Shown here in pieces: positions 3,530-60,794 of a stretch of DNA of 64,000 nt. Position 1 is the stretch's first letter, and each line of letters begins with the position of its first letter. The DNA is from Escherichia phage DCP548: the sequence record PQ671645.1; one strand, written 5' to 3'. The notes under the pieces are model-generated. The model searched no databases. It was not told the origin of the DNA and saw nothing but the letters and a program-made list of their open reading frames with translations. The position numbers and the translations under genes were made by a program.

Positions 3530-5617
3530 CTATCCTTGGACAAATTTAAACGGAACTGATTCTAAATCCATTAAAGATGCTAACAATTTCAAACCTTTAG
3601 GTGCACTAGTTTTTTCTACAAATGAGGCAAAAGATACCGGCTCATCTGATTCGATTTCACCTGTCATAGCAACTACCTCGCCTGTTTCCATGAGAACATC
3701 ACCATCATAAATGACAGCTTCATCTAACTGGTCTGAGGACATGACTTCAGCTTGAATAAATTTAAGGTTGGATTCTAAACCTGCACCAGTATCAGATGAC
3801 GCATCTGTAATTTTATTTATCTGCAAGAGAATGCCTCTAGGCAAAATAATTTCTTGCTCATTAGGGTGATTACTCAACTGTCCTGGATAAATCACGTTAA
3901 CTTTATGGGCGCCATCAATAGCCCATCCAACGTTAACACGGATTTGTTCTGGTGCATGCATAGCTGTTCTTACTTGACTAGGAGAAATAGTAACACCTTC
4001 GTCATTATTATCAATGTTAAGCTCTTTGCGAACTTCTTCAGGAGCAAGTCCAAGGGCAACGTTCTCTTTAAACCCGCCGAAAATAATAGGAGCTAGTGAA
4101 GTGGAAACATAGTTTCTGAAGTAGAATACCTTATTTTTAACCATTGCTTCGTAAATAGGCATTCTGATAGACTGAGCTCTATATAACGTTAGTCCTTCAG
4201 GTAAACGGTCTCCATTTAAAAACGCCGAATCAAGACCATCAATAGCGCGTTTAACTTCATCTTCATCTGCAACATCGTAAAAATCTGGTTTATAACGACC
4301 TAACAACATATTATTGATATCGATATACGCAGAAGAGGCATATTCACGAATAGCTCGTTTTTCAGCAACAGAGTATTGTTTAGGGTCCCGATTCATTGTT
4401 ATATTAAAGGTGCCTCTAGCCGATTCCCGTGCATAAGTATACATCACATTAGACAAGAACGCTGATTTACGTTGTTTCCAAGTTCTTTCAGATACTTCAG
4501 CTAAAACGTCGTCGGGCAGTTGGAAATTATCACGTCTAAAATCTTCAAACCATTCGTCTTTAATAGAGTCTGCAATTTCATTTGCAGCTTCAACAAAAGC
4601 AGCTAATGCTTTAACAGATGTTGTTTTTTCAGTTTTAATTTTCTTAGCAAACTTTTCTAAAGTTGGCTTAATAACACTACCATAAGAAACTTCATCGGCA
4701 AATTTAAAGGATTCATCAATACGATTATAAATCTTATTTTCGATATCAGCAACTAAAGTGCCTTTTGCTGTGGACGATGCTTGGGCTAGTACGATTTCAT
4801 ATGCTTCAGGAAGTAATTCGGCTGTAGCCGGGCCACTAACTTCTTTAGCAGAATTTTCGTATTTCTGGAATAACTCACCTTCTTGACGGTCAGCTTCTAA
4901 AGATTGACTTGCTGCAATAGCACGACGAGAAATTTTGGTGCGAGCAATAACAGGTTTATCTTTACGTTTTTCTTCTACCGCGGCAATAGAACCGGCGATA
5001 GCCGTTTCTTTGGTGACCTTTTCACCGGTCTTTTTACTCACATAAACTTCGCCAACATCAGAATCTACTTTCGTGTACAACTCTGTGTTAATGTTAGGGA
5101 TGCCTTTAATATCCTCAATGTTGGCATTTTTACGAACCATCATCACATAGGTGTGTTTACCTGTGAATTGATACATTGCCGACAATACTTTAAAACGACC
5201 ACCGGTTTTAGTAGAAACTAAACGAGCAAGAAGAGTTTGAAGCTGCTGTCCACGTCCTTTCAATTTCTTGGTAGGGAACCGGAACAGAACTGCATCCATA
5301 CGAAGAGCTTTAACCTGTTCATATACTGTATTGAAAATGGTGTTGATTGCATCAATAGGAGCAGGACCAAGGCCATTTTTCAATTCAGCGAGATTACCCT
5401 TTTCAGACAGACTCATAATAACAACATGAGCGTATTTGTCGCCAAGTTTAACTTGTTTTACAGCATCGCCTTCAGAAAGGTAAGAGAATAAGCGAACTAC
5501 GATGTTTGTATCGATATCACCAATTTTCCAGACTTGTGGAACTTTAGCTTTAGGGTTCAAATTGACGACAGGAAGACTGCCTTCAGATTCAAACACTTCA
5601 TTTAATTGTTCAGACAT
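3530..5617 (-). CDS. alt: Alt ADP-ribosyltransferase (virion-packaged; modifies host RNA polymerase)
   Basis: 695 aa (T4 Alt about 682 aa); directly downstream of DNA ligase as in T4; C-terminal region carries YRAQ and Ser-rich ART-like motifs; TATAAAT-like late promoter upstream. Confidence 0.8.
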   Translation of the reverse strand: MSEQLNEVFESEGSLPVVNLNPKAKVPQVWKIGDIDTNIVVRLFSYLSEGDAVKQVKLGDKYAHVVIMSLSEKGNLAELKNGLGPAPIDAINTIFNTVYEQVKALRMDAVLFRFPTKKLKGRGQQLQTLLARLVSTKTGGRFKVLSAMYQFTGKHTYVMMVRKNANIEDIKGIPNINTELYTKVDSDVGEVYVSKKTGEKVTKETAIAGSIAAVEEKRKDKPVIARTKISRRAIAASQSLEADRQEGELFQKYENSAKEVSGPATAELLPEAYEIVLAQASSTAKGTLVADIENKIYNRIDESFKFADEVSYGSVIKPTLEKFAKKIKTEKTTSVKALAAFVEAANEIADSIKDEWFEDFRRDNFQLPDDVLAEVSERTWKQRKSAFLSNVMYTYARESARGTFNITMNRDPKQYSVAEKRAIREYASSAYIDINNMLLGRYKPDFYDVADEDEVKRAIDGLDSAFLNGDRLPEGLTLYRAQSIRMPIYEAMVKNKVFYFRNYVSTSLAPIIFGGFKENVALGLAPEEVRKELNIDNNDEGVTISPSQVRTAMHAPEQIRVNVGWAIDGAHKVNVIYPGQLSNHPNEQEIILPRGILLQINKITDASSDTGAGLESNLKFIQAEVMSSDQLDEAVIYDGDVLMETGEVVAMTGEIESDEPVSFASFVEKTSAPKGLKLLASLMDLESVPFKFVQG

Positions 5618-5882: not shown

Positions 5883-7354
5883 GGTCCAAATACGTCTTCA
5901 AACGAATCCGCTTCTGTTTTATCAAAACGGAACCCTTTAATAATTGGAAGGAAAATACCTACAGTGCCTTCACGTCCTTTAGAATGAACCCAACCATTGC
6001 ATTCACAATCAGCAATACGTCCAATCAATTTACCTTCACGAGCTTCGGTCATTAATCGTTCACGGTCCAAATCATGACGCTCATCTAAAGGAATAAGAAC
6101 CTTTACACCATCAACTGTTTTATGAGTTGTATCTTTAAACCCTGAACCACAATCGGTTGTAATACGACGACAACGTGATACGAGTTCGACACCACCTAAT
6201 TTGTTAGGGTCTTTAGAGTGTTCATAGTATCCTACAACTTCTAAAGCGATATCAATAACTTCTTTAAATTTAATTAGGTTCTTAGAGCGTTTGTTTTCCC
6301 AGTATGAATCACGGTTTTTAAGGATAATACCTTCAAGACCTTGGTCAACATATTTTTTATAAACCACTTTAGCTTCGTCAAGATTACGAACTAACTGATT
6401 TTCAATTGGCTCAATTCGCTTAAAGCCTTCAGCCATATTTTCAAGAGCAGCAAAACGAACATCGTATTTCTGGCCTTTAATTTTGCCATCAGAATAGACT
6501 TCATCTAAAGGAACATAGTCCCAGGCTTGAAGAACCATACCTTCCGCTTCTTTAGGAGAAATAGTCCCTTGAAGAGATTTATTTGCTAAACCATTTGAAG
6601 TGCTACGGTCTGCAACTTGTACTTCTTCGGATTCTTCATTATCACCAAATAAGAACGACAGGTCATTTCCTGAGCTCACAGCCTTTTTAATATCAAATGA
6701 ATGATAAACTAATTCACCGTCGATTAAAACCCCATTAGGGTGTCTTTCACGAGCTTCTTTAGTCATTTCCATTAGTTCATCCGCTAATAGAGTAAGACCA
6801 TGGTATTCGTTACCGGCACGAGAAAAGAATTGAACACCATCATCGCGAACTTCAGCGAAACAACGAGCACCGTCTGCTTTTAATTGGGCAAATGCTGGCC
6901 ATTTAATATTTTTAGTAATCAATTTCTCATCATATGCAGATGCTAACATCTGTGGTTGCAATTGAATAAGTCCAGGCCACACCTTATTCGCGATAGACAC
7001 TGAAGCACCTACTTCAAGGTCTCGCATCATTACACGACGAAGGACTTCTACATCATCAGGTTTACCGTCAGCGATATAACCCATGAGCTCTTTAATTGCA
7101 GCATTACCAGTGAGTTTACGAGTGGCTAATGTGAACTCAATAAAATCCAACATGTCATCTAATTCAAGAAGACCATACGCTTGAGACCTTTCACCTGGTC
7201 CTGGCCATTTCTTAATATAATACTGGATACCACGTGCATATGTTAAACGATACACACGTTCAAGTAATTTGTTGTCCTTATTTTTCTTAAGGATTTCTTG
7301 TTTTGTTTTAGTAGAACCGATCGCAGCTATTTGGTTTAAAATATCTAAAATCAT
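5861..7354 (-). CDS. 30: ATP-dependent DNA ligase gp30
   Basis: 497 aa; N-terminus MILDILNQIAAIGSTKTKQEI and C-terminal FEDVFG motif closely match T4 DNA ligase (487 aa). Confidence 0.95.
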   Translation of the reverse strand: MILDILNQIAAIGSTKTKQEILKKNKDNKLLERVYRLTYARGIQYYIKKWPGPGERSQAYGLLELDDMLDFIEFTLATRKLTGNAAIKELMGYIADGKPDDVEVLRRVMMRDLEVGASVSIANKVWPGLIQLQPQMLASAYDEKLITKNIKWPAFAQLKADGARCFAEVRDDGVQFFSRAGNEYHGLTLLADELMEMTKEARERHPNGVLIDGELVYHSFDIKKAVSSGNDLSFLFGDNEESEEVQVADRSTSNGLANKSLQGTISPKEAEGMVLQAWDYVPLDEVYSDGKIKGQKYDVRFAALENMAEGFKRIEPIENQLVRNLDEAKVVYKKYVDQGLEGIILKNRDSYWENKRSKNLIKFKEVIDIALEVVGYYEHSKDPNKLGGVELVSRCRRITTDCGSGFKDTTHKTVDGVKVLIPLDERHDLDRERLMTEAREGKLIGRIADCECNGWVHSKGREGTVGIFLPIIKGFRFDKTEADSFEDVFGPWSQTGL

Positions 7355-10376: not shown

Positions 10377-10417
10377 TTTATTCTCCAGATGTTTAAGTTG
10401 TTTGTTGGTACAGGTCT

Positions 10418-10446
10418 ATAATAACATAACCTGTACCAAAGTAAAC
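10418..10446 (-). promoter_or_regulatory. T4-type early promoter upstream of ORF 10011..10376
   Basis: Minus-strand -35 GTTTAC (plus 10441-10446), 17-bp spacer, -10 TATTAT; flanked by an 8-bp inverted repeat ggtacagg/cctgtacc. Confidence 0.5.
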
Positions 10447-46075: not shown

Positions 46076-46349
46076 AGATACCTCTGATGTGTAGTTCGCC
46101 AAAATAAATGCGGTCACCTTCTTCAAGATATTCAGCATCTACAGGTGGAATTTCATTAACAACTTCGTCGCATTCTAACCAGCCATAGTGTGCATCACCT
46201 GGGTGTTTTACCAATTTAGCACAATAAACCGATTTACACTTATGATGACCACGAAGATTAGCAATTTTGGATTCTGATACGTCAAATGGATGAATCATAA
46301 TTACCCCTAAAGAAAAAGGGGACCGAAGTCCCCAATTATTATTCTGCAA
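46011..46349 (-). CDS. Hypothetical protein (between rIIB and denB)
   Basis: 112-aa ORF; overlaps the proposed denB start by about 65 nt, so one boundary is probably wrong. Confidence 0.3.
   Translation of the reverse strand: MQNNNWGLRSPFSLGVIMIHPFDVSESKIANLRGHHKCKSVYCAKLVKHPGDAHYGWLECDEVVNEIPPVDAEYLEEGDRIYFGELHIRGIYGKDELGIVETEESSDIYPVE
46313..46333 (-). terminator. Intrinsic terminator after rIIB
   Basis: ggggac-cgaa-gtcccc (46318-46333) followed on the minus transcript by UUUUUCUUU; 6 nt after the rIIB stop. Confidence 0.55.
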
Positions 46350-47286
46350 ATAATTCAGTAACGTCTGAAATTACTTCATAACGACAAGTACGCATCTTAG
46401 CATCGCCATAGTCAACTGGGATGGACACAACATCACGTGGATGAACTTTAACCTTAACAACTTTATCTGAGCTAGAACCAAAGTAACGAATATACGATTT
46501 AGCGCAAACATGTAGACCACGGGAGCAGGTTTGTGTATCATCATCGTTAACACGAGTACGAGGCATTGAAACAACTTTACCTGGTGAGTTATCAAATGTA
46601 CCGCTATAGCAATCTAAATAATCTTTACGAACTACTTTCCACGCGTAGAAATGCCCATCTTCAGTGATTTCAATATCATTTGCAACCAAGAAGTCGAATA
46701 AACGTTGTACAGCTTTTTCGCTTGGGTTTTCTAACAGGTTTTCAAGGAACGGTAGATAGAATTTAAAGTCTTCGCCTTTTTCCATAGAATCAATAATACG
46801 ATTAACCAGACCAGAACGAATCTCTATACCTTGATAAAATAAACTACCACCTTCAATAACAACATTACCGTCAACAAACTTACTAATAGCTTTCTTGATG
46901 TTAATAAGTTCGACAGCTTTACTAAGGTTTCCTGCGACCAGATTAGCTTTAATTTCTTCAAAATTTGCATGACTTGATGGAGTCGCATTGTATGCTACGC
47001 GTCCTTCAATAATTGAAATAAATTTAGATGACGCGTTCCATACGATTTCAGGACGATGTCCGCCGATAATAGGTTCATCATTTTCTGGAACTTCTTCGAT
47101 TACATAAGAGGCATCGTTTGCTTCAGGGACAACGCCTTCTGCTTTAAAATTCTTAACAATCTTACGAAGAGTATCTGTTGAAATGTCGAAGTAATCGGCA
47201 ATTTCTTTACGAGTCCATTTGCCTGATTCAACCAGGCCGTAAGCTTCTAACTGTTCTTCTTGGGATAAGCATTTGATATTGTACAT
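46339..47286 (-). CDS. rIIB: rIIB membrane-associated protein
   Basis: 315 aa (T4 rIIB 312 aa); near-identical N-terminus MYNIKCL and C-terminal half (DGNVVIEGGSLFYQ...VNDDDTQTCSRGLHVC...VHPRDVVSIP). Confidence 0.95.
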   Translation of the reverse strand: MYNIKCLSQEEQLEAYGLVESGKWTRKEIADYFDISTDTLRKIVKNFKAEGVVPEANDASYVIEEVPENDEPIIGGHRPEIVWNASSKFISIIEGRVAYNATPSSHANFEEIKANLVAGNLSKAVELINIKKAISKFVDGNVVIEGGSLFYQGIEIRSGLVNRIIDSMEKGEDFKFYLPFLENLLENPSEKAVQRLFDFLVANDIEITEDGHFYAWKVVRKDYLDCYSGTFDNSPGKVVSMPRTRVNDDDTQTCSRGLHVCAKSYIRYFGSSSDKVVKVKVHPRDVVSIPVDYGDAKMRTCRYEVISDVTELFAE

Positions 47287-47295
47287 AATGTTTCC

Positions 47296-49509
47296 TTATT
47301 TGGCCGCTTCCACGGCCTTCATGAATTTAACGATTTGAGCGACCTGTTCTTTGGAAAGAGTACCACGTCGTCCCATGTATTCTGACACAATATGATAATT
47401 GGTTTCGAATTCAATAACCATTTTATCATCATTATCGTAAGCATTATCTTTAAGCTTATCGAAAATTTTAGCACACAATTCTAACTTCTTATTCAGGTCT
47501 GTATTAGTAGCACCTGCGAATCGATTCCATCCCCAACGATTATTTACTGTTGAGAGTTTTGCAAAATCTTTACTGATTTCTTTGTTTTTAGAGCTAAAAT
47601 ACTTACTAAGGAAGTTAAGCTCTTCATTACGAGTAATATGATTCAAATAAGGCTGTGCTCTACGACTTGGTGATACATACTCATCATAATCCACTTTATC
47701 GATTAGCGTAATATAGTCATTAATTGATTTTTCGAACAAGCATTCTACTTCACCAAGTTTACGAACTTTCTTAGCAATCTGTGGACGAACTACAGTGAAC
47801 TCTTTAATACCTGACAAATCAGCAATACGGGTCAAGAAATTGGAGTCATAGTTCAACCAACCTTTATCTGCGTCAAGACATTCGGCATTAGAACGATTAC
47901 GAACTATAGCATAACCTTGGATTTCATCTGCTTCACTTGCCGGAATAAAGAGGTCTTCTGATACCCAAACATCGTTTTCATTCTTAAAGAATCGATGAGC
48001 ACTCGGGGATTTAGGACGAGGCTCATTAGTCCGTTTCCTGACTTCAATCCATGGCTTAACGATTTGTAAAAGCTCTGAAGTCTTGTACATGTTAATGTTG
48101 TCGCCATCAAAGATAACTTTAAGGCGTTCCAGAAGTTTCATTGCATCTTCGTCTGTAGGGTCAACGAATAGTACGCTTTTACCAAAACCGCGTGGAACTT
48201 TACCGGATAATTTAACCTCGTCTTTAGACATTTCAATTGAATTAAGAGCTCGCATTAATGGAACGCGTCCCTTAACATCGTCAATAACAATTTCAACGTT
48301 TTTAATGTTAATGCCAATCAGGCTGTTAATTGAAATGGTTGATGATGAGCTACCACTTTCACGAATACGACGAAGACGAGGGGATTCAACGATATCGTAT
48401 ACGACACCAAGATTACACCACTCAGGTCCCATTTTAAAACGTTTGTACAACTCAGAATAAGTTAGTTGTTCTTTAGAGTATTTCAGTGATTCAATATTAG
48501 ACCCGGCCTTTTCCATGTATTTACGAGCGGTATAACCAAGAGAATCAATTTCGCGGAACACATGTCGTGGGTATTTACAATCAATCCATTTCTTAGAATC
48601 TTCAGCGAACAATTTAGAATCGATTTCTGCAACGCGTTTATGGATATTTGCTACTGTACGTTTATCAAATGACAATGCTTCGCGAGACGGAGCAACATCT
48701 AGTTCACCCATTGGGAATTTAATATAAGCTGTAGTGCATCGTGTCATCATCCATGTTTGTTCTTTAATAACACTTCCGATTGGATATACAATACCGCCAT
48801 AAACAGCCATGATATTACCACGTTCACCCCATGGAGCTTCCTTGGCCAAATATACATCATCAAATTCTGGGAAGTATTTAATATCTTTAACACCACGAAC
48901 TTCTGCAATATCACCTAGAGGACGCATAACATATGCAATTTCGGATGCAAACTTTTCAAAATCTTCCGGGTTAACCGGTACAACTACTTCTACACCCGTA
49001 CGGTCATCAGGACCCATCTTATCTACAAAGGTCGGCTTAATCTGTGGACCTGTGTCATCTTGGTAGATTACGTAACCACGAACTTCACCATTATGATAAG
49101 ACGTAAGGTTAAACGTATCAGTATATGCTAATGGAGCTTTAGAGCCGAGTCCGAATCCACCAATGAAATCGTTACTCGATGTTTTAGTTGAAGCAAAATA
49201 TGAGTTATAAATTCCTGGCTCTTCGTCATTACCACGAATAGTGAAATCACTCATACCAGGTCCAAAATCACGAACTACAAAACGTGGGTCTAAACGACCT
49301 GGAGCCTGAACAATAAACTTATCAGTGCAACCATTAAGAATTTGCCCATCAATACAGTTTGTGATTAATTCACGTACACAAGCCAATTCTTTGTTTGTAT
49401 AAAGGTCATTAGACAAAATCTTATAAACTTTGCTATTGCCTTGAATAGTAAATGCTGTGCTCTTACCGCCTGAACCAATAATCGTTTCTTTAGCCGTTTC
49501 AATAATCAT
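47296..49509 (-). CDS. rIIA: rIIA membrane-associated protein
   Basis: 737 aa (T4 rIIA 725 aa); GHKL ATPase-like N-terminal region; immediately upstream of rIIB. Confidence 0.9.
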   Translation of the reverse strand: MIIETAKETIIGSGGKSTAFTIQGNSKVYKILSNDLYTNKELACVRELITNCIDGQILNGCTDKFIVQAPGRLDPRFVVRDFGPGMSDFTIRGNDEEPGIYNSYFASTKTSSNDFIGGFGLGSKAPLAYTDTFNLTSYHNGEVRGYVIYQDDTGPQIKPTFVDKMGPDDRTGVEVVVPVNPEDFEKFASEIAYVMRPLGDIAEVRGVKDIKYFPEFDDVYLAKEAPWGERGNIMAVYGGIVYPIGSVIKEQTWMMTRCTTAYIKFPMGELDVAPSREALSFDKRTVANIHKRVAEIDSKLFAEDSKKWIDCKYPRHVFREIDSLGYTARKYMEKAGSNIESLKYSKEQLTYSELYKRFKMGPEWCNLGVVYDIVESPRLRRIRESGSSSSTISINSLIGINIKNVEIVIDDVKGRVPLMRALNSIEMSKDEVKLSGKVPRGFGKSVLFVDPTDEDAMKLLERLKVIFDGDNINMYKTSELLQIVKPWIEVRKRTNEPRPKSPSAHRFFKNENDVWVSEDLFIPASEADEIQGYAIVRNRSNAECLDADKGWLNYDSNFLTRIADLSGIKEFTVVRPQIAKKVRKLGEVECLFEKSINDYITLIDKVDYDEYVSPSRRAQPYLNHITRNEELNFLSKYFSSKNKEISKDFAKLSTVNNRWGWNRFAGATNTDLNKKLELCAKIFDKLKDNAYDNDDKMVIEFETNYHIVSEYMGRRGTLSKEQVAQIVKFMKAVEAAK

Positions 49510-49521
49510 ATTTTTCTCTCA

Positions 49522-49722
49522 TCACAAGTTACGTTTAAAAATTTCTGCTACTTCAAGAAGTTCTTCTTTAGTAGCTGTATCGGTTTGTATTTTATATCGA
49601 ATTTCTTTAAAGCGTTCTTTAAAGGACTCTGCTGACTCGATATCAAAAAATCTTTGGATAAGCCGGAATTCCCGGAGTACAGCTTTATCAAAAAGTTCCA
49701 AGTCCACGTTATATGTTCTCAT
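49522..49722 (-). CDS. Hypothetical small protein (rIIA.1 position)
   Basis: 66-aa ORF directly upstream of rIIA. Confidence 0.45.
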   Translation of the reverse strand: MRTYNVDLELFDKAVLREFRLIQRFFDIESAESFKERFKEIRYKIQTDTATKEELLEVAEIFKRNL

Positions 49723-49814
49723 AATATTCTCTTCAGTAGATTCCTAGGGCACTATTACTAAAGACCATATAATCTATCATCTTATGTGTAATAGTGCCTC
49801 AGGCTATTCAGGAT

Positions 49815-50915
49815 TTACGCTGTGAAGATTTTATCCCACATCGCAACAACTGCATCTCGGTTATACTTCTTCCATACTGCTTCAGCACGTTTAACTCGAG
49901 CTTCGTATGTGTCAGTGAATTCTAATACAGCTTTTGTGTAAAGCGCAACTACTTCTTTCTTAGGAGTAGAGGAATCAATTTCTACACGCACAGTATCTGG
50001 GTCGTATTCGAATGTCGCATGAGGATAATCCTTAAAAACTAACTGGATTACAGGGACACCTTTAGAGATGGCTTCAATAGAACTATTCTCTACCGTACCT
50101 GTGTCAGGACACGTATTAATAAGTGCTTTAGCTGTTTTAAGACGTTCCATGATTTCACTGTGTGGAGCATCAATAATAACAGGATATTTAGCTGGTGGCG
50201 CCCATTTGCTTGGGCAGTATCCTGCACCATTTTCGCCTAGTGCTTTAATCGCTTCAAGAGCAACATCAGTACGACGCATTTTAGTGTCATAACGTTGTGC
50301 ACTAATAATCAGATCCGTCGCCGGAAGAACTTCAGGTTTCTCATTCAAACAAATAACCGGATAATCTTCGGCTTCAAACAACGGATTTGCTCGCCAATAA
50401 TCGTAATCAATTTTGTCAGTCAGACCTGAAGTCATATAACAATATTTGCGTTCAAATTCACGGAAGGCTTTAGTAGGAGCATAACTCTTACCACCATTCT
50501 TATGAATTTGAATAGTCTGGTCCCAAATTTGAACAATGCCACGAGATACCGGTTCAAATGGTGTTGCCATAAAATTCTTATGAACTTTAGAGAGACCTGC
50601 GTCTTTAATTGCCTGAACGGTTAGTTTAGTCGGTTCCATAGTAACAACAAAATCGTATTCATGGATGCCGGCTAGTTCAACAATCTTACGAGCCATAGTA
50701 TAACTCATACCTAGACTGAATTTAGTCAGATGACCAACAGGATGGTGTGTAACTTTCCAGTCACCAAACGTGTCGTTATCAAAGCCGATATAATCAATAT
50801 CAGCACCGATGGACACAAGATATTTCAACACGTTCAAATGAACCGCTTCAAGACCACCTTGTACACGTTCTGGGTTAAATGGGACTGCGCGAGATGGGAT
50901 AAACATAACTTTCAT
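49815..50915 (-). CDS. Putative GT-B fold glycosyltransferase (family 4-like)
   Basis: 366 aa; N-terminus MKVMFIPS...GGLEAV typical of the GT-B N-domain; C-domain has TGTVENSSIEAISKGVPVI resembling the GT4 E-x7-E / ...EAMA.G.PVI motif region; lies where T4 has gene 60 and mobA. Confidence 0.45.
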   Translation of the reverse strand: MKVMFIPSRAVPFNPERVQGGLEAVHLNVLKYLVSIGADIDYIGFDNDTFGDWKVTHHPVGHLTKFSLGMSYTMARKIVELAGIHEYDFVVTMEPTKLTVQAIKDAGLSKVHKNFMATPFEPVSRGIVQIWDQTIQIHKNGGKSYAPTKAFREFERKYCYMTSGLTDKIDYDYWRANPLFEAEDYPVICLNEKPEVLPATDLIISAQRYDTKMRRTDVALEAIKALGENGAGYCPSKWAPPAKYPVIIDAPHSEIMERLKTAKALINTCPDTGTVENSSIEAISKGVPVIQLVFKDYPHATFEYDPDTVRVEIDSSTPKKEVVALYTKAVLEFTDTYEARVKRAEAVWKKYNRDAVVAMWDKIFTA

Positions 50916-50930
50916 AATTAAGCCTTATTA

Positions 50931-50959
50931 AAATTAAAATGAAGCTCCCGAAGGAGCTT
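50931..50959 (-). terminator. Terminator-like hairpin after gene 39
   Basis: aagctcc-cgaa-ggagctt (50942-50959) overlapping the gene 39 stop, followed on the minus transcript by a U-rich tract. Confidence 0.45.
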
Positions 50960-52775
50960 AGGACATCCATTCTTTACGAAGTTCTGAATCATCACCCATC
51001 AACATTTCAAAGAGTTCTTTCCAATTTTCAGGAAGTTTAACTACGTCGTACACAGGGTTCTGAATCATTTCACGATATTCTGACTTTTCAAGGGAGCCTA
51101 ATCCCTTGATGTATCGAATACTATGCTTAGGCAGTGTATCTTTAACTTCTTCATACTCAGCTACAGTATAAAACCATTTTTGAGTTTTGCCAATTTGTGC
51201 AATAATTACAGGCGTTTTAACAAAGCGAATACGTCCTTGTTCAAACAATTCAGGCCAATTACTAAAGAAAGCAAGCAAAGCCGGATAGATACTTCCAAGA
51301 CCGTCATGATCGGCATCGGTCATAATTGCAATATTACGATAGTTCGTATTCTCTGCCTTTTCACCAAGAATAAGACCTGTGATAGCACAGATATCGAAGA
51401 GCTCTTTGTTCTTCATCATATCGGCATATGACATACCCCAGCTATTCATCACCTTACCACGTAATGGGAATCCACCGTGTAGTTCACGGTCACGAACATC
51501 AATGAGATAACCAATTGCCGAATCACCTTCTGTTAAAAACAATGTCGTATCTGCATCTTTACCACATTGGTTAGCTTTAATATGCTTATGAACCTTAGCT
51601 TTAGTTGCCTTTTTAGCTGCTTTAGTTTCTGCAGCCTTTTCTGCTGCCAATTTACGAGCTAATGCTGCTTCAACAATAGGCATAATCAAGGCTTCGTTTT
51701 TAAGAAGTGCCTGAGCAATTTTCTTAGCATCTAATTGGATATGATTACGAATATCGCCATACGTTGACGTTAAACGTTCTTTAGTCTGAGAATCAAAACG
51801 CATGTTGCTCATGTCTCTAATAAACATCAACATTGTGAGACATTCTTTAACACGAGCTTTAGTGACTTCAATACCCTTATATTTCTTTTTAATACCCGGC
51901 AAAAGATGTTCGCAGATATCATCCATTACACATTCAACATGATGACCACCATTTTTAGTATGGATGTTATTCACATAAGTTAAATGACGGAAGCCGTCCG
52001 GCGATGTTGTGAATGCTATAGAGACTTTATCATTTTCTTGAATGATGCTATCTTCGCCAAATTGTTTAGCAAATCGTTTAAAATTACCATCAACCTTTTT
52101 ACCATTAAATGTGAACTTGATATCAGGATAAACGACTGCCAATGTTTGAAGTCGGTCTAAAGTAATATCTAAATAAATTTGAGATAAATTATGCTCTTCA
52201 AATGAAGAGAAATCAGGAGTGAAGATTACTTTAGTGCCTTTACCTTTAGATTTCTTAGAAGACCATGATTTGTTTTCCATTCCGTTTGAACAGTTAACAG
52301 TGATTTCATTTTCGCCATCTGACGTGATGCCTGTAAACAACGTAGAGAAGATATTAGTTAAACTACTCCCGACGCCGTTCATACCACCAGTCTTGCGTTC
52401 AGAGTCATCACCAAAGTTACCACCGGCCTTTGGAATAGTCCAGGCCGCTACAGGCCCAGGAATTTGTTCACCTGTTTGGTCGGTAACTAAACCTTGAGGA
52501 ATACCACGCCCGTTATCTTCCACTGAAACTTGATTATTTTTAATTTGCACATCAATTTTATTTGCAAACTTAAATGATGTACGAATAGCTTCATCAACCG
52601 AGTTGTCAATAATCTCATCGATTAATTTAACCAGACCAGGAACATATTCAACTTGTTGATATTTACCAAACAAAAAACGCTCGTGGGCTTCTTTAGCCGA
52701 AGAACCAATATACATACCACTACGTTTCTTAATATGTTCTACATCTGACAATACCTTAATTTCATTTTTAATCAT
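50958..52775 (-). CDS. 39: DNA topoisomerase II large subunit (GyrB-like), uninterrupted gp39+gp60 form
   Basis: 605 aa; N-terminal GHKL ATPase; C-terminal 130 aa (IAIMTDADHDGLGSIYP...KLPENWKELFEMLMGD) match T4 gp60, so the protein is contiguous with no bypass element. Confidence 0.95.
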   Translation of the reverse strand: MIKNEIKVLSDVEHIKKRSGMYIGSSAKEAHERFLFGKYQQVEYVPGLVKLIDEIIDNSVDEAIRTSFKFANKIDVQIKNNQVSVEDNGRGIPQGLVTDQTGEQIPGPVAAWTIPKAGGNFGDDSERKTGGMNGVGSSLTNIFSTLFTGITSDGENEITVNCSNGMENKSWSSKKSKGKGTKVIFTPDFSSFEEHNLSQIYLDITLDRLQTLAVVYPDIKFTFNGKKVDGNFKRFAKQFGEDSIIQENDKVSIAFTTSPDGFRHLTYVNNIHTKNGGHHVECVMDDICEHLLPGIKKKYKGIEVTKARVKECLTMLMFIRDMSNMRFDSQTKERLTSTYGDIRNHIQLDAKKIAQALLKNEALIMPIVEAALARKLAAEKAAETKAAKKATKAKVHKHIKANQCGKDADTTLFLTEGDSAIGYLIDVRDRELHGGFPLRGKVMNSWGMSYADMMKNKELFDICAITGLILGEKAENTNYRNIAIMTDADHDGLGSIYPALLAFFSNWPELFEQGRIRFVKTPVIIAQIGKTQKWFYTVAEYEEVKDTLPKHSIRYIKGLGSLEKSEYREMIQNPVYDVVKLPENWKELFEMLMGDDSELRKEWMS

Positions 52776-52821
52776 GTTGTCTCCTCGTTATGAAGGTATT
52801 CTATCATCCGAAATCTAAAGC

Positions 52822-52838
52822 AAAAAGGGCCGAAGCCC
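52822..52838 (-). terminator. Intrinsic terminator-like hairpin after ORF 52839..53264
   Basis: gggc-cgaa-gccc with aaaaa on the plus side (U5 on the minus transcript). Confidence 0.45.
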
Positions 52839-53264
52839 TTATTTAAATTTAATTTTCTGAAGTGCATCAATTGCAGCCAAACGCCCTTGTTCACTTTTAA
52901 CTGTAATGACCACATCGCCTGATACGATCACCGAACCATCAACAAATTCTATAGAGCCTTTTTTGAAATCGACAGCTGTATCTGGTTCCGGAACTTCTTC
53001 AAAGAATTTAAATTCTGCACCATAAAGCAGAATATCACCTTGCATACTATGAATAGTTCGGCCATAATCGCCTACGGCTTCTACAGCAATAACCGAAACG
53101 CCGTAACCAATCATCTCTTCCACAATAAAATCTTTGGACAATAAAGTAGTATGCAGATTAGTATTAAGACGCTTACCAGTCGTATTAAGAATTCTCAAGA
53201 AATTATCTTCCTGTCCTTTGATAATACGATATTTCTTACCAACTTCAAAACCTTTAAAAGCCAT
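52839..53264 (-). CDS. Hypothetical protein
   Basis: 141-aa ORF followed by a CGAA-loop terminator hairpin at 52827-52838. Confidence 0.45.
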   Translation of the reverse strand: MAFKGFEVGKKYRIIKGQEDNFLRILNTTGKRLNTNLHTTLLSKDFIVEEMIGYGVSVIAVEAVGDYGRTIHSMQGDILLYGAEFKFFEEVPEPDTAVDFKKGSIEFVDGSVIVSGDVVITVKSEQGRLAAIDALQKIKFK

Positions 53265-54668: not shown

Positions 54669-54694
54669 ATTATTCTCCTCTGGTTGATATGGAT

Positions 54695-54723
54695 ATAATA
54701 TCAAAACCAGAGGAGAAGTAAAC
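54695..54723 (-). promoter_or_regulatory. T4-type early promoter upstream of ORF 54144..54668
   Basis: -35 GTTTAC (plus 54718-54723), 17-bp spacer, -10 TATTAT. Confidence 0.45.
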
Positions 54724-60157: not shown

Positions 60158-60738
60158 TAAAAATTCAACATCTTTAAGTGAATGATTTTGTATACTCGAG
60201 ACAAAGGGTCATACTCTAACTCTTCGATTTCCACAATCTCAAATCTAGAGATACTTGAAACCATGTACTCTTGTTCAGATTCAATCATATCTAGGACATC
60301 AACACGTGTTTCTTCCATAACATGCTTAGGGTTCTTTCCGGCGAGTACAATATTAACCATGTTTTGGTAGTAATCAAAAATGAATGGAGCATTCCTGAGA
60401 CTAAGAATAGTGTACGTCTGATATTCCCATCTCCCAGAGAATTGACGAGCTGTACTGAAATCAGTTGTGAACGATGTTACTCGTCCAGGAGACCAATGGC
60501 ATCCAACAGAAAGAAGGGAAAGACGTTCTACTTCTTCTGGAGTTACACCACGGTAGAGTTCTACTGGTACTGCAGAAGTCATATGCTTACGAACAAGATG
60601 GTCTAATTCATAGTGGAAATCCGGGTCTTCCTTAGAATCGGTGCAAGCCCAGAGAATGTTTTGTTCTTGGTGGGTGAATTTGCTATCAATCAGATTTGTT
60701 AGGTATTCACGTTCTTGAAGTTCAGATTGACATGTCAT
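60157..60738 (-). CDS. modB: ModB-like ADP-ribosyltransferase
   Basis: 193 aa; paralogue of the adjacent gene (LYRGVTP, SFTTDFSTARQF); T4 map position. Confidence 0.6.
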   Translation of the reverse strand: MTCQSELQEREYLTNLIDSKFTHQEQNILWACTDSKEDPDFHYELDHLVRKHMTSAVPVELYRGVTPEEVERLSLLSVGCHWSPGRVTSFTTDFSTARQFSGRWEYQTYTILSLRNAPFIFDYYQNMVNIVLAGKNPKHVMEETRVDVLDMIESEQEYMVSSISRFEIVEIEELEYDPLSRVYKIIHLKMLNF

Positions 60739-60765
60739 GATAGACCTCCATTTAAAGATAAGCCT

Positions 60766-60794
60766 ATCATAACACGAGAGGAGGGAATGTAAAC
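60766..60794 (-). promoter_or_regulatory. T4-type early promoter upstream of modB
   Basis: -35 GTTTAC (plus 60789-60794), 17-bp spacer, -10 TATGAT. Confidence 0.4.

Follow-up and report, generated by a model that had tools for sequence, protein, structure and literature searches.

Hairpins between the cistrons of T-even and related phages have been described in several forms. The sites cut by RNase III or RNase E and the hairpins that act as barriers to decay, such as the T7 early sites and the stabilising hairpins of T4, are long, imperfect and intercistronic, with neither a promoter nor a U-tract; RNase III accepts stacked pairs interrupted by internal loops, as at the phage T7 sites. Hairpins that sequester a ribosome-binding site and contain an internal promoter (T4 e, soc, 49 and I-TevI) are large and lie 5′ of genes reached by read-through, and the UUCG terminators of T-even phages are placed directly after stop codons. 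The PeSL cassettes (promoter-early stem-loops) of T4-type phages occupy variable junctions beside lineage-specific genes (Arbiol et al. 2010, PMC2839356; Comeau et al. 2014, PMC4122927); stem-loops from T4-like variable regions terminate transcription in reporter assays (PMC2839356), and a role of such motifs as recombination targets is a speculation of the PeSL literature.

The hairpin described here, between ORF003c and rIIA.1 of Escherichia phage DCP548, belongs to an ordinary class, the intercistronic hairpins, but its location is new. With the described processing and stability sites it shares a long imperfect structure free of promoter and U-tract, and with T7-type RNase III sites in particular it shares about 24 predicted stacked pairs with internal loops and a greater stability on the coding strand; it differs from them in having no sequence or Rfam relationship to such sites and no covariation support. 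As with PeSL cassettes, it lies at a variable junction beside a lineage-specific gene, but it has no early promoter, its stem is not a short GC-rich terminator stem and it is not repeated. Like the hairpins that sequester a ribosome-binding site, it stands 5′ of a gene reached by read-through; unlike them, it has no promoter inside and leaves the Shine-Dalgarno sequence and AUG of rIIA.1 outside the stem. Its placement directly after a stop codon recalls the T-even UUCG terminators (at 50942-50959, 52825-52840 and 46318-46333), from which it is set apart by a 29-nt loop, an AU-rich stem and the lack of a U-tract.

The whole stretch of DNA that was analysed (the window; 64,000 nucleotides, record PQ671645.1) comes from a Mosigvirus, an RB69-like T-even phage. 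The minus-strand gene order is gp39, RB69 ORF003c, the hairpin, rIIA.1, rIIA and rIIB, with the following features at and around the junction:

46318-46333: UUCG terminator-like hairpin with a U-tract, after rIIB
46339-47286, minus strand: rIIB
47296-49509, minus strand: rIIA
47420-47443: MotA-type middle promoter inside rIIA, just 5′ of rIIB
49522-49722, minus strand: rIIA.1 (Pfam PF24210, E = 2e-30), ATG at 49722
49723-49814, minus strand: 92-nt intercistronic spacer between ORF003c and rIIA.1, without a promoter or U-tract terminator
49743-49803, minus strand: complete stem-loop, with a 16-position outer stem and a 29-nt structured loop
49788-49803, minus strand: RNA 5′ arm, CCUGAGGCACUAUUAC, 0 of 16 positions variable among 14 distinct haplotypes
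49759-49787, minus strand: loop of 29 nt, with predicted inner helices of 5 bp and 3 bp and a 5-nt apical loop
49743-49758, minus strand: RNA 3′ arm, GUAAUAGUGCCCUAGG, holding all 5 variable stem positions
49815-50915, minus strand: ORF003c homologue of 366 aa, candidate hmC-arabinosyltransferase of the GT-B fold class
50942-50959, minus strand: UUCG-tetraloop terminator-like hairpin after gp39, at the far edge of the ORF003c segment, equivalent to the published RB69 TransTerm terminator 3649-3662
50958-52775, minus strand: gp39, fused topoisomerase large subunit
52798-52822, minus strand: MotA-type middle promoter 5′ of gene 39 (TGCTTTA, 12 nt, TAGAAT), equivalent to the published RB69 Pm:5538
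52825-52840: UUCG terminator-like hairpin with a U-tract, preceding gene 39

RB69 ORF003c has been proposed to be an arabinosyltransferase that makes arabinosyl-hydroxymethylcytosine (PMC6024577), and one database record labels it 'putative hmC-arabinosyltransferase'; the protein had no Pfam match at E values up to 0.01. Its relatives form two groups, one in Mosigvirus at about 95-100% identity and one in Acinetobacter phages at 41-43%, and no relative of intermediate identity was found among 5.8 billion proteins. Downstream, rIIA.1 has a weak Shine-Dalgarno sequence, GAAGAG, 6-11 nt 5′ of its ATG.

Reading of the sequence confirmed the 11-bp inverted repeat that had been noticed in a preliminary description: GGCACTATTAC (49748-49758) is the exact reverse complement of GTAATAGTGCC (49788-49798), with 29 nt between them, and the plus strand of the loop, and that strand only, holds tataat at 49768-49773. 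The placement given there, between a glycosyltransferase-like gene (the ORF003c homologue) and rIIA.1, is also right, as the repeat falls within the 92-nt spacer. Repeat finding lengthens the arms to 16 nt (49743-49758 and 49788-49803, 88% complementary). The predicted fold of the minus-strand RNA consists of four outer pairs, a 1x1 A.C mismatch, 11 perfect pairs of which five are G-C, an internal loop, helices of 5 bp and 3 bp and a 5-nt apical loop; the stem overall is AU-rich. This structure takes up 61 of the 92 nt of the spacer, and the stem ends 20-25 nt 5′ of the rIIA.1 AUG, its base (49743) being 20 nt away.

The minus-strand RNA folds far better than shuffled controls (z = -4.4 to -6.8), the comparison by which the preliminary description had proposed to judge the hairpin. 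A 55-nt RNA reaches -23.0 kcal/mol (z = -6.8; 0 of 200 shuffles equal), a 67-nt RNA -28.5 kcal/mol (z = -6.05) and the entire 92-nt spacer -28.6 kcal/mol (z = -4.4). Among 42,628 sliding 60-nt folds covering both strands of the 64 kb, the hairpin ranks second in stability, and over another 50 kb, taken from the RB69 early region, -24.2 kcal/mol was reached by only 4 of 16,647 overlapping minus-strand windows, at two loci. The window contains three perfect inverted repeats of at least 11 bp with a loop of at most 40 nt, against 0.81 expected from Markov simulations; the 11-bp repeat alone is not rare, and it is the complete structure that is exceptional. The coding-strand RNA (-28.5 kcal/mol) is about 6 kcal/mol stabler than the antisense RNA (-22.6 kcal/mol) because of G.U pairs. 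By the usual measure for an RNase III substrate, about 20 or more stacked pairs and usually an internal loop, the predicted fold would qualify.

Transcription signals were sought in the surrounding region. Of the T4-type early-promoter pattern (GTTTAC, 16-18 nt, TAnnnT) the window has 21 copies, where 3.4 would be expected; only one is on the plus strand, and none falls between 45505 and 54695. A position-weight matrix was built from 18 early promoters of the window, whose training scores were 24-37 bits. In its scan, with listed sites confined to the minus strand, the spacer reached -6.4 at best and nothing between 46 and 53.5 kb exceeded 7. The spacer is also without a MotA box (TGCTT) or a late-promoter box (TATAAATA), and a sigma-70 scan of both strands called no promoter in spacer or loop. 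Terminator scans called nothing at the hairpin while calling the nearby UUCG hairpins, and directly 3′ of the stem stands CCCUAGGAAUCUACUG / CCCTAGGAATCTACTG, with no U-tract. Published predictions for RB69 (Nolan et al. 2006 supplements) place middle promoters at Pm:156 and Pm:5538, terminators at 3649-3662 and 5535-5546 and the first early promoter at 6863, with no promoter or TransTerm terminator at the ORF003c/rIIA.1 junction.

Several candidate functions fall away on these data. An early promoter in the loop is ruled out by the matrix, the sigma-70 scan and the published RB69 promoter list, and a MotA-dependent middle promoter or a late promoter by the missing boxes. An antisense promoter based on the plus-strand tataat was rejected, as no usable -35 element can be read and the sigma-70 scan is negative. 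An intrinsic terminator does not fit a hairpin with no U-tract, a loop of 29 rather than 3-8 nt and a stem that is not short and GC-rich, and none was called. No match to Rfam 15 was found at gathering score anywhere in the window, and at E values up to 10 there were only chance snoRNA-type matches, none over the hairpin, so that a known RNA family was rejected also. A 15-codon open reading frame that begins in the loop (MIDYMVFSNSALGIY, picked out by eye on the minus strand) was not taken as coding, since it has no convincing Shine-Dalgarno sequence and most substitutions alter its amino acids. A pairing between the loop (49762-49772) and the rIIA.1 start-codon region (49709-49719) is no better than eight chance pairs within 2 kb and is broken in phage MM02.

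The nearest predicted promoter upstream of the hairpin is the MotA-type promoter at 52798-52822. From the map of promoters and terminators it follows that rIIA.1 and rIIA transcripts in Mosigvirus must start 5′ of ORF003c and read through the hairpin. For the genes from 39 to rIIB (46339-52775) only MotA-type middle promoters are predicted and no early promoter, and ORF003c, rIIA.1 and rIIA therefore appear to need read-through of the terminator that follows gene 39. Between gp39 and ORF003c, the 42-nt spacer with this UUCG hairpin (50916-50957) has no variable site in at least 10 genomes, while ORF003c varies at 13.5% of its sites.

We consider it unlikely that the hairpin is an attenuator, pause site or partial terminator that reduces read-through from ORF003c into rIIA.1 and rIIA, as the preliminary description had suggested among other roles. 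A very stable nascent-RNA hairpin between cistrons would suit such a role, and the terminating stem-loops of T4-like variable regions offer a precedent (PMC2839356). However, the stem runs into CCCUAGGAAUCUACUG instead of a U-tract, the loop is long and the stem AU-rich, and both our scans and the published RB69 TransTerm list are silent here yet call the UUCG hairpins flanking gene 39, leaving the suggestion poorly supported. Moreover, rIIA has no predicted promoter of its own 3′ of the hairpin, so that efficient termination would starve it of transcripts.

The hairpin was found in all of the related genomes recovered (154 of 154); a lack of conservation was among the signs that the preliminary description would have counted against its reading. 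In these 154 Mosigvirus genomes its identity is at least 97%, with no insertion or deletion. An 801-nt query matched 154 phage records at 90% identity or more and 153 at 95% or more, including APCEc01, JS09, mar005P1 and SF, and a 111-nt query further added RB69 and HX01. Homology to Tequatrovirus (about 800 Tequatrovirus and other records) covers rIIA.1 only and stops at about 49731, a point 9 nt 5′ of the rIIA.1 ATG and still 11 nt short of the stem base. The hairpin thus lies wholly within the Mosigvirus-specific segment that also carries ORF003c.

In T2, rIIA.1 follows gene 39 after 54 nt, ORF003c is absent, and the spacer is an early promoter (GTTTAC, 18 nt, TATAAT); the only hairpin within it is a small one of 7 bp. 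The corresponding spacer of Klebsiella phage Roth21 contains a terminator and then a MotA-type middle promoter, and in JS98, S16, Q7622 and CHI14 the place is taken by other small ORFs or by a homing endonuclease. These differing contents mark the 39/rIIA.1 junction as a variable spot. In phage AV114 (L017, 1-558) an annotated homing endonuclease lies directly 5′ of ORF003c, where the window has gp39, which is more evidence for a variable junction. In this comparison the hairpin is part of a Mosigvirus-specific insert that replaced a promoter.

Outside Mosigvirus, ORF003c homologues occur nearly all in Acinetobacter T4-like phages (about 42% identity), with one further Tegunavirus record. The Acinetobacter genes are tandem paralogues in a different gene context, with ordinary UUCG hairpins 3′ of them. 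In phages Acj61 (L015, 2620-2676) and Apostate (L016, 2623-2677) the paralogues lie between a thymidylate-kinase-like gene and gp40, with a UUCG hairpin after the first paralogue; the Acj61 hairpin overlaps a TATAAATA late-promoter-like box.

The proposal that the hairpin is a scar of the insertion that brought in the glycosyltransferase-like gene was borne out in part. The hairpin does lie inside the ORF003c segment, and T2, which lacks the gene, has a promoter and no such hairpin, but neither a donor, nor a target-site duplication, nor a residue of the T2 spacer could be demonstrated. No donor sequence was found, flanking direct repeats or a target-site duplication were not seen by eye, and local alignment to the T2 spacer scored 12 against a shuffle mean of 13.5. 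The arm sequence has no other copy in the window and is found at one place each in almost all phage records, and the hairpin sequence had no match in 5,426 E. coli genomes. A host-derived or repeated mobile element was rejected on the lack of an E. coli match, the essentially single copy and the lack of flanking direct repeats. Taken together, a promoter, a canonical terminator, an origin, a known RNA family and a mobile repeat are each excluded or unsupported.

It is highly improbable that the hairpin embeds a promoter of its own or is a decayed copy of the T2 early promoter. The T2 promoter does stand at the equivalent position, the promoter-in-hairpin architecture recurs in the window at 54673-54717, 10405-10439 and 60718-60777, and a weak ATTACA, 17 nt, TATGGT (8 of 12 positions) can be picked out by eye in the 5′ arm and loop. 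Against these stand a matrix score of -6.4 where true sites reach 24-37 bits, a sigma-70 score below threshold, a published RB69 list with no early promoter below 6813, a Shine-Dalgarno sequence and AUG that lie outside the stem, and the T2-spacer alignment, which falls below that of shuffled sequence.

Variation was compared among 14 distinct haplotypes, taken from GenBank phages, IMG/VR and metagenomes. The RNA 5′ arm is invariant, and the five stem positions that vary all lie in the 3′ arm. In RB69 a U>C change creates an A.C mismatch in the core (+3.9 kcal/mol), in GADS24 a G>A change removes the closing pair (+3.2), and in NHEP36 and TH58 a G>C change removes the outermost pair (+2.4); changes in the loop cost +3.0 kcal/mol in MM02 and +0.9 in HX01. 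In AV109, AV116 and AV114 an adjacent CU>UC change replaces the A.C mismatch and a G.U wobble by Watson-Crick pairs, so that the stem is perfect over 16 bp and the fold reaches -35.3 kcal/mol. All haplotypes fold at -24.6 kcal/mol or lower, and a hairpin at -24 kcal/mol would probably still work. The single-lineage changes, among them one double substitution, cost +0.9 to +3.9 kcal/mol, where the mean of all possible single changes is +2.4.

With several genomes picked for their divergence at this site, 8 of 61 hairpin sites are variable, as against 39 of 201 third-codon sites (p = 0.34); under the same biased choice of genomes, this is about 10-fold more than the 6 of 402 first- and second-codon sites (p = 9e-5). 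Within a genus that is 95-99% identical, the 11-bp core has two pair-breaking and no compensatory changes among the 14 haplotypes, and the outer stem of these close relatives has one double change that restores two pairs. More divergent relatives that might show covariation were not found, the IMG/VR and metagenome scans giving only near-identical copies. The data suggest neither covariation nor measurable constraint on the hairpin, in a shallow sampling of the genus that makes for a weak test of low power. The AV double change fits selection for pairing and templated quasi-palindrome correction equally well; the latter is a DNA-level process known from T4 rII genetics.

Two readings are the most likely: an ordinary hairpin for mRNA processing or stability, and a palindrome without function at the acquired gene's edge. 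We favour the former, an intercistronic mRNA processing or stability element, at a probability of roughly 40%. Under this model it would be a cis-acting stem-loop of the polycistronic minus-strand mRNA running from ORF003c through rIIA.1 to rIIA, acting after transcription and, at the 3′ edge of the genus-specific ORF003c segment, marking the boundary between cistrons. It could bar 3′-to-5′ exonucleases and so shield the ORF003c message; alternatively it could be a double-stranded target of RNase III, or stand beside an RNase E cut that would give the rIIA.1-rIIA mRNA a structured 5′ end. That the RNA form has any activity, and which nuclease (if any) is involved, we only infer, and searches of the published literature found no Mosigvirus transcriptome, RNA-seq or transcript-end data. 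This reading is favoured by the extreme stability of the fold (0 of 200 shuffles, rank 2 of 42,628) and by its predicted 16 + 5 + 3 stacked pairs with internal loops, the kind that RNase III accepts. It is also consistent with the published RB69 predictions, which agree in showing nothing at the junction, so that upstream transcripts must cross the hairpin, and with a spacer that holds neither a promoter nor a canonical terminator.

The other of these two readings, a functionless quasi-palindrome at the junction of the ORF003c segment, is tentative but to be taken seriously. It would have arisen by inverted duplication or a template switch in recombination or replication, and would persist only because the genus is young. 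Its position suits this origin, about 11 nt from the point where Tequatrovirus homology resumes and at a junction whose contents differ in every genus examined. The variation is what a neutral sequence would show, and it also counts against an mRNA element: the hairpin varies at a near-synonymous rate, close to that of third-codon positions, and its changes destabilise the fold as random ones would. The confinement of the five variable stem positions to one arm, and the AV109/AV116/AV114 CT-to-TC change that makes the arms exact complements, a signature of templated correction, again suit a neutral palindrome. An mRNA element is further disfavoured by the lack of any compensatory change in the 11-bp core, by the tolerance of broken pairs (the core A.C mismatch of RB69 and the closing pair of GADS24) and by the lack of an Rfam family match. 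Other observations weigh on the opposite side. A 92-nt spacer free of other signals, with 61 nt given over to the hairpin, is unusual in so compact a genome; no insertion or deletion has entered the hairpin in 154 genomes, and all haplotypes still fold; and the coding-strand RNA has an advantage of about 6 kcal/mol over the antisense. Each of these argues for an mRNA element and against a neutral palindrome, for which, in addition, no donor, target-site duplication or second copy was found.

Two further models were considered alongside the mRNA element. Distinctly unlikely is a more speculative form of that element, a clamp that couples translation of rIIA.1 to that of ORF003c. Folding away 61 of the 92 spacer nucleotides would bring the ORF003c stop codon near the rIIA.1 start, and in a 141-nt fold UCUUCA, from the last ORF003c codons, pairs with UGAAGA, over the rIIA.1 Shine-Dalgarno sequence, in a weak 6-bp helix at the foot of the hairpin. 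The rIIA.1 site might then stay closed until a ribosome completes ORF003c or a nuclease cleaves the hairpin, and an acquired DNA-modification gene would gate the rII locus in place of the early promoter of T2; a 6-bp match of this sort, however, easily arises by chance. Very unlikely is a role at the level of DNA, whether in binding a dimeric protein, in forming a cruciform, as a recombination hotspot or as a replication origin. The arms are palindromic across 16 bp, and the proposal that stem-loop motifs serve as recombination targets would accommodate them, but the hairpin is present in a single copy per genome with no family of related sites, and a strand-asymmetric fold has no meaning for duplex DNA. 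A 29-nt spacer disfavours cruciform extrusion, and a replication origin was rejected because oriA of T4 lies near soc, at a different locus.

Were the hairpin to act in processing or stability, it would show how an acquired DNA-modification gene was fitted into the 39-to-rII transcription unit, in which Mosigvirus, unlike T2, lacks a dedicated rIIA promoter. The gene in question, the candidate hmC-arabinosyltransferase, sets the RB69-like phages apart from other T-even phages, and the hairpin would also offer a convenient handle for the engineering of phages of the RB69 type. If the hairpin is instead a neutral quasi-palindrome, its value lies only in the natural templated palindrome correction of AV109, AV116 and AV114. 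The stakes are modest, and neither outcome opens a long-standing question.

The double change in AV109, AV116 and AV114 (L003, L004 and L017; CT to TC within 49743-49752) also abolishes an in-frame TAG. As a result, rIIA.1 is annotated in GenBank for these phages as 231 nt instead of 201, with a GTG start in the 3′ arm, which is probably an annotation artefact.

Elsewhere in the window, short inverted repeats flank the -10 element in many of 20 listed early promoters. The stablest local fold of the window is a 13-bp perfect inverted repeat at 54673-54717 on the minus strand (-25.3 kcal/mol for the plus strand, -23.9 for the minus), which reads, in minus-strand order, GTTTAC, the 5′ arm, the loop TATTAT, the 3′ arm AACCAGAGGAGAA and taat ATG. 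It is an early promoter with its -10 element in the hairpin loop, and its 3′ arm carries the Shine-Dalgarno sequence of the next ORF; the ribosome-binding site would be hidden in read-through transcripts and free in those of the promoter itself. A second promoter-in-hairpin on the minus strand (10405-10439) has 11-bp arms flanking TATTAT at 10418-10446, and a third (60718-60777, minus strand) has its -10 element, TATGAT, in the 5′ arm, and its 3′ arm includes the start ATG of the gene that follows. A near-twin of the 54673-54717 hairpin lies upstream of regB in RB69 (L026, 45298-45357).
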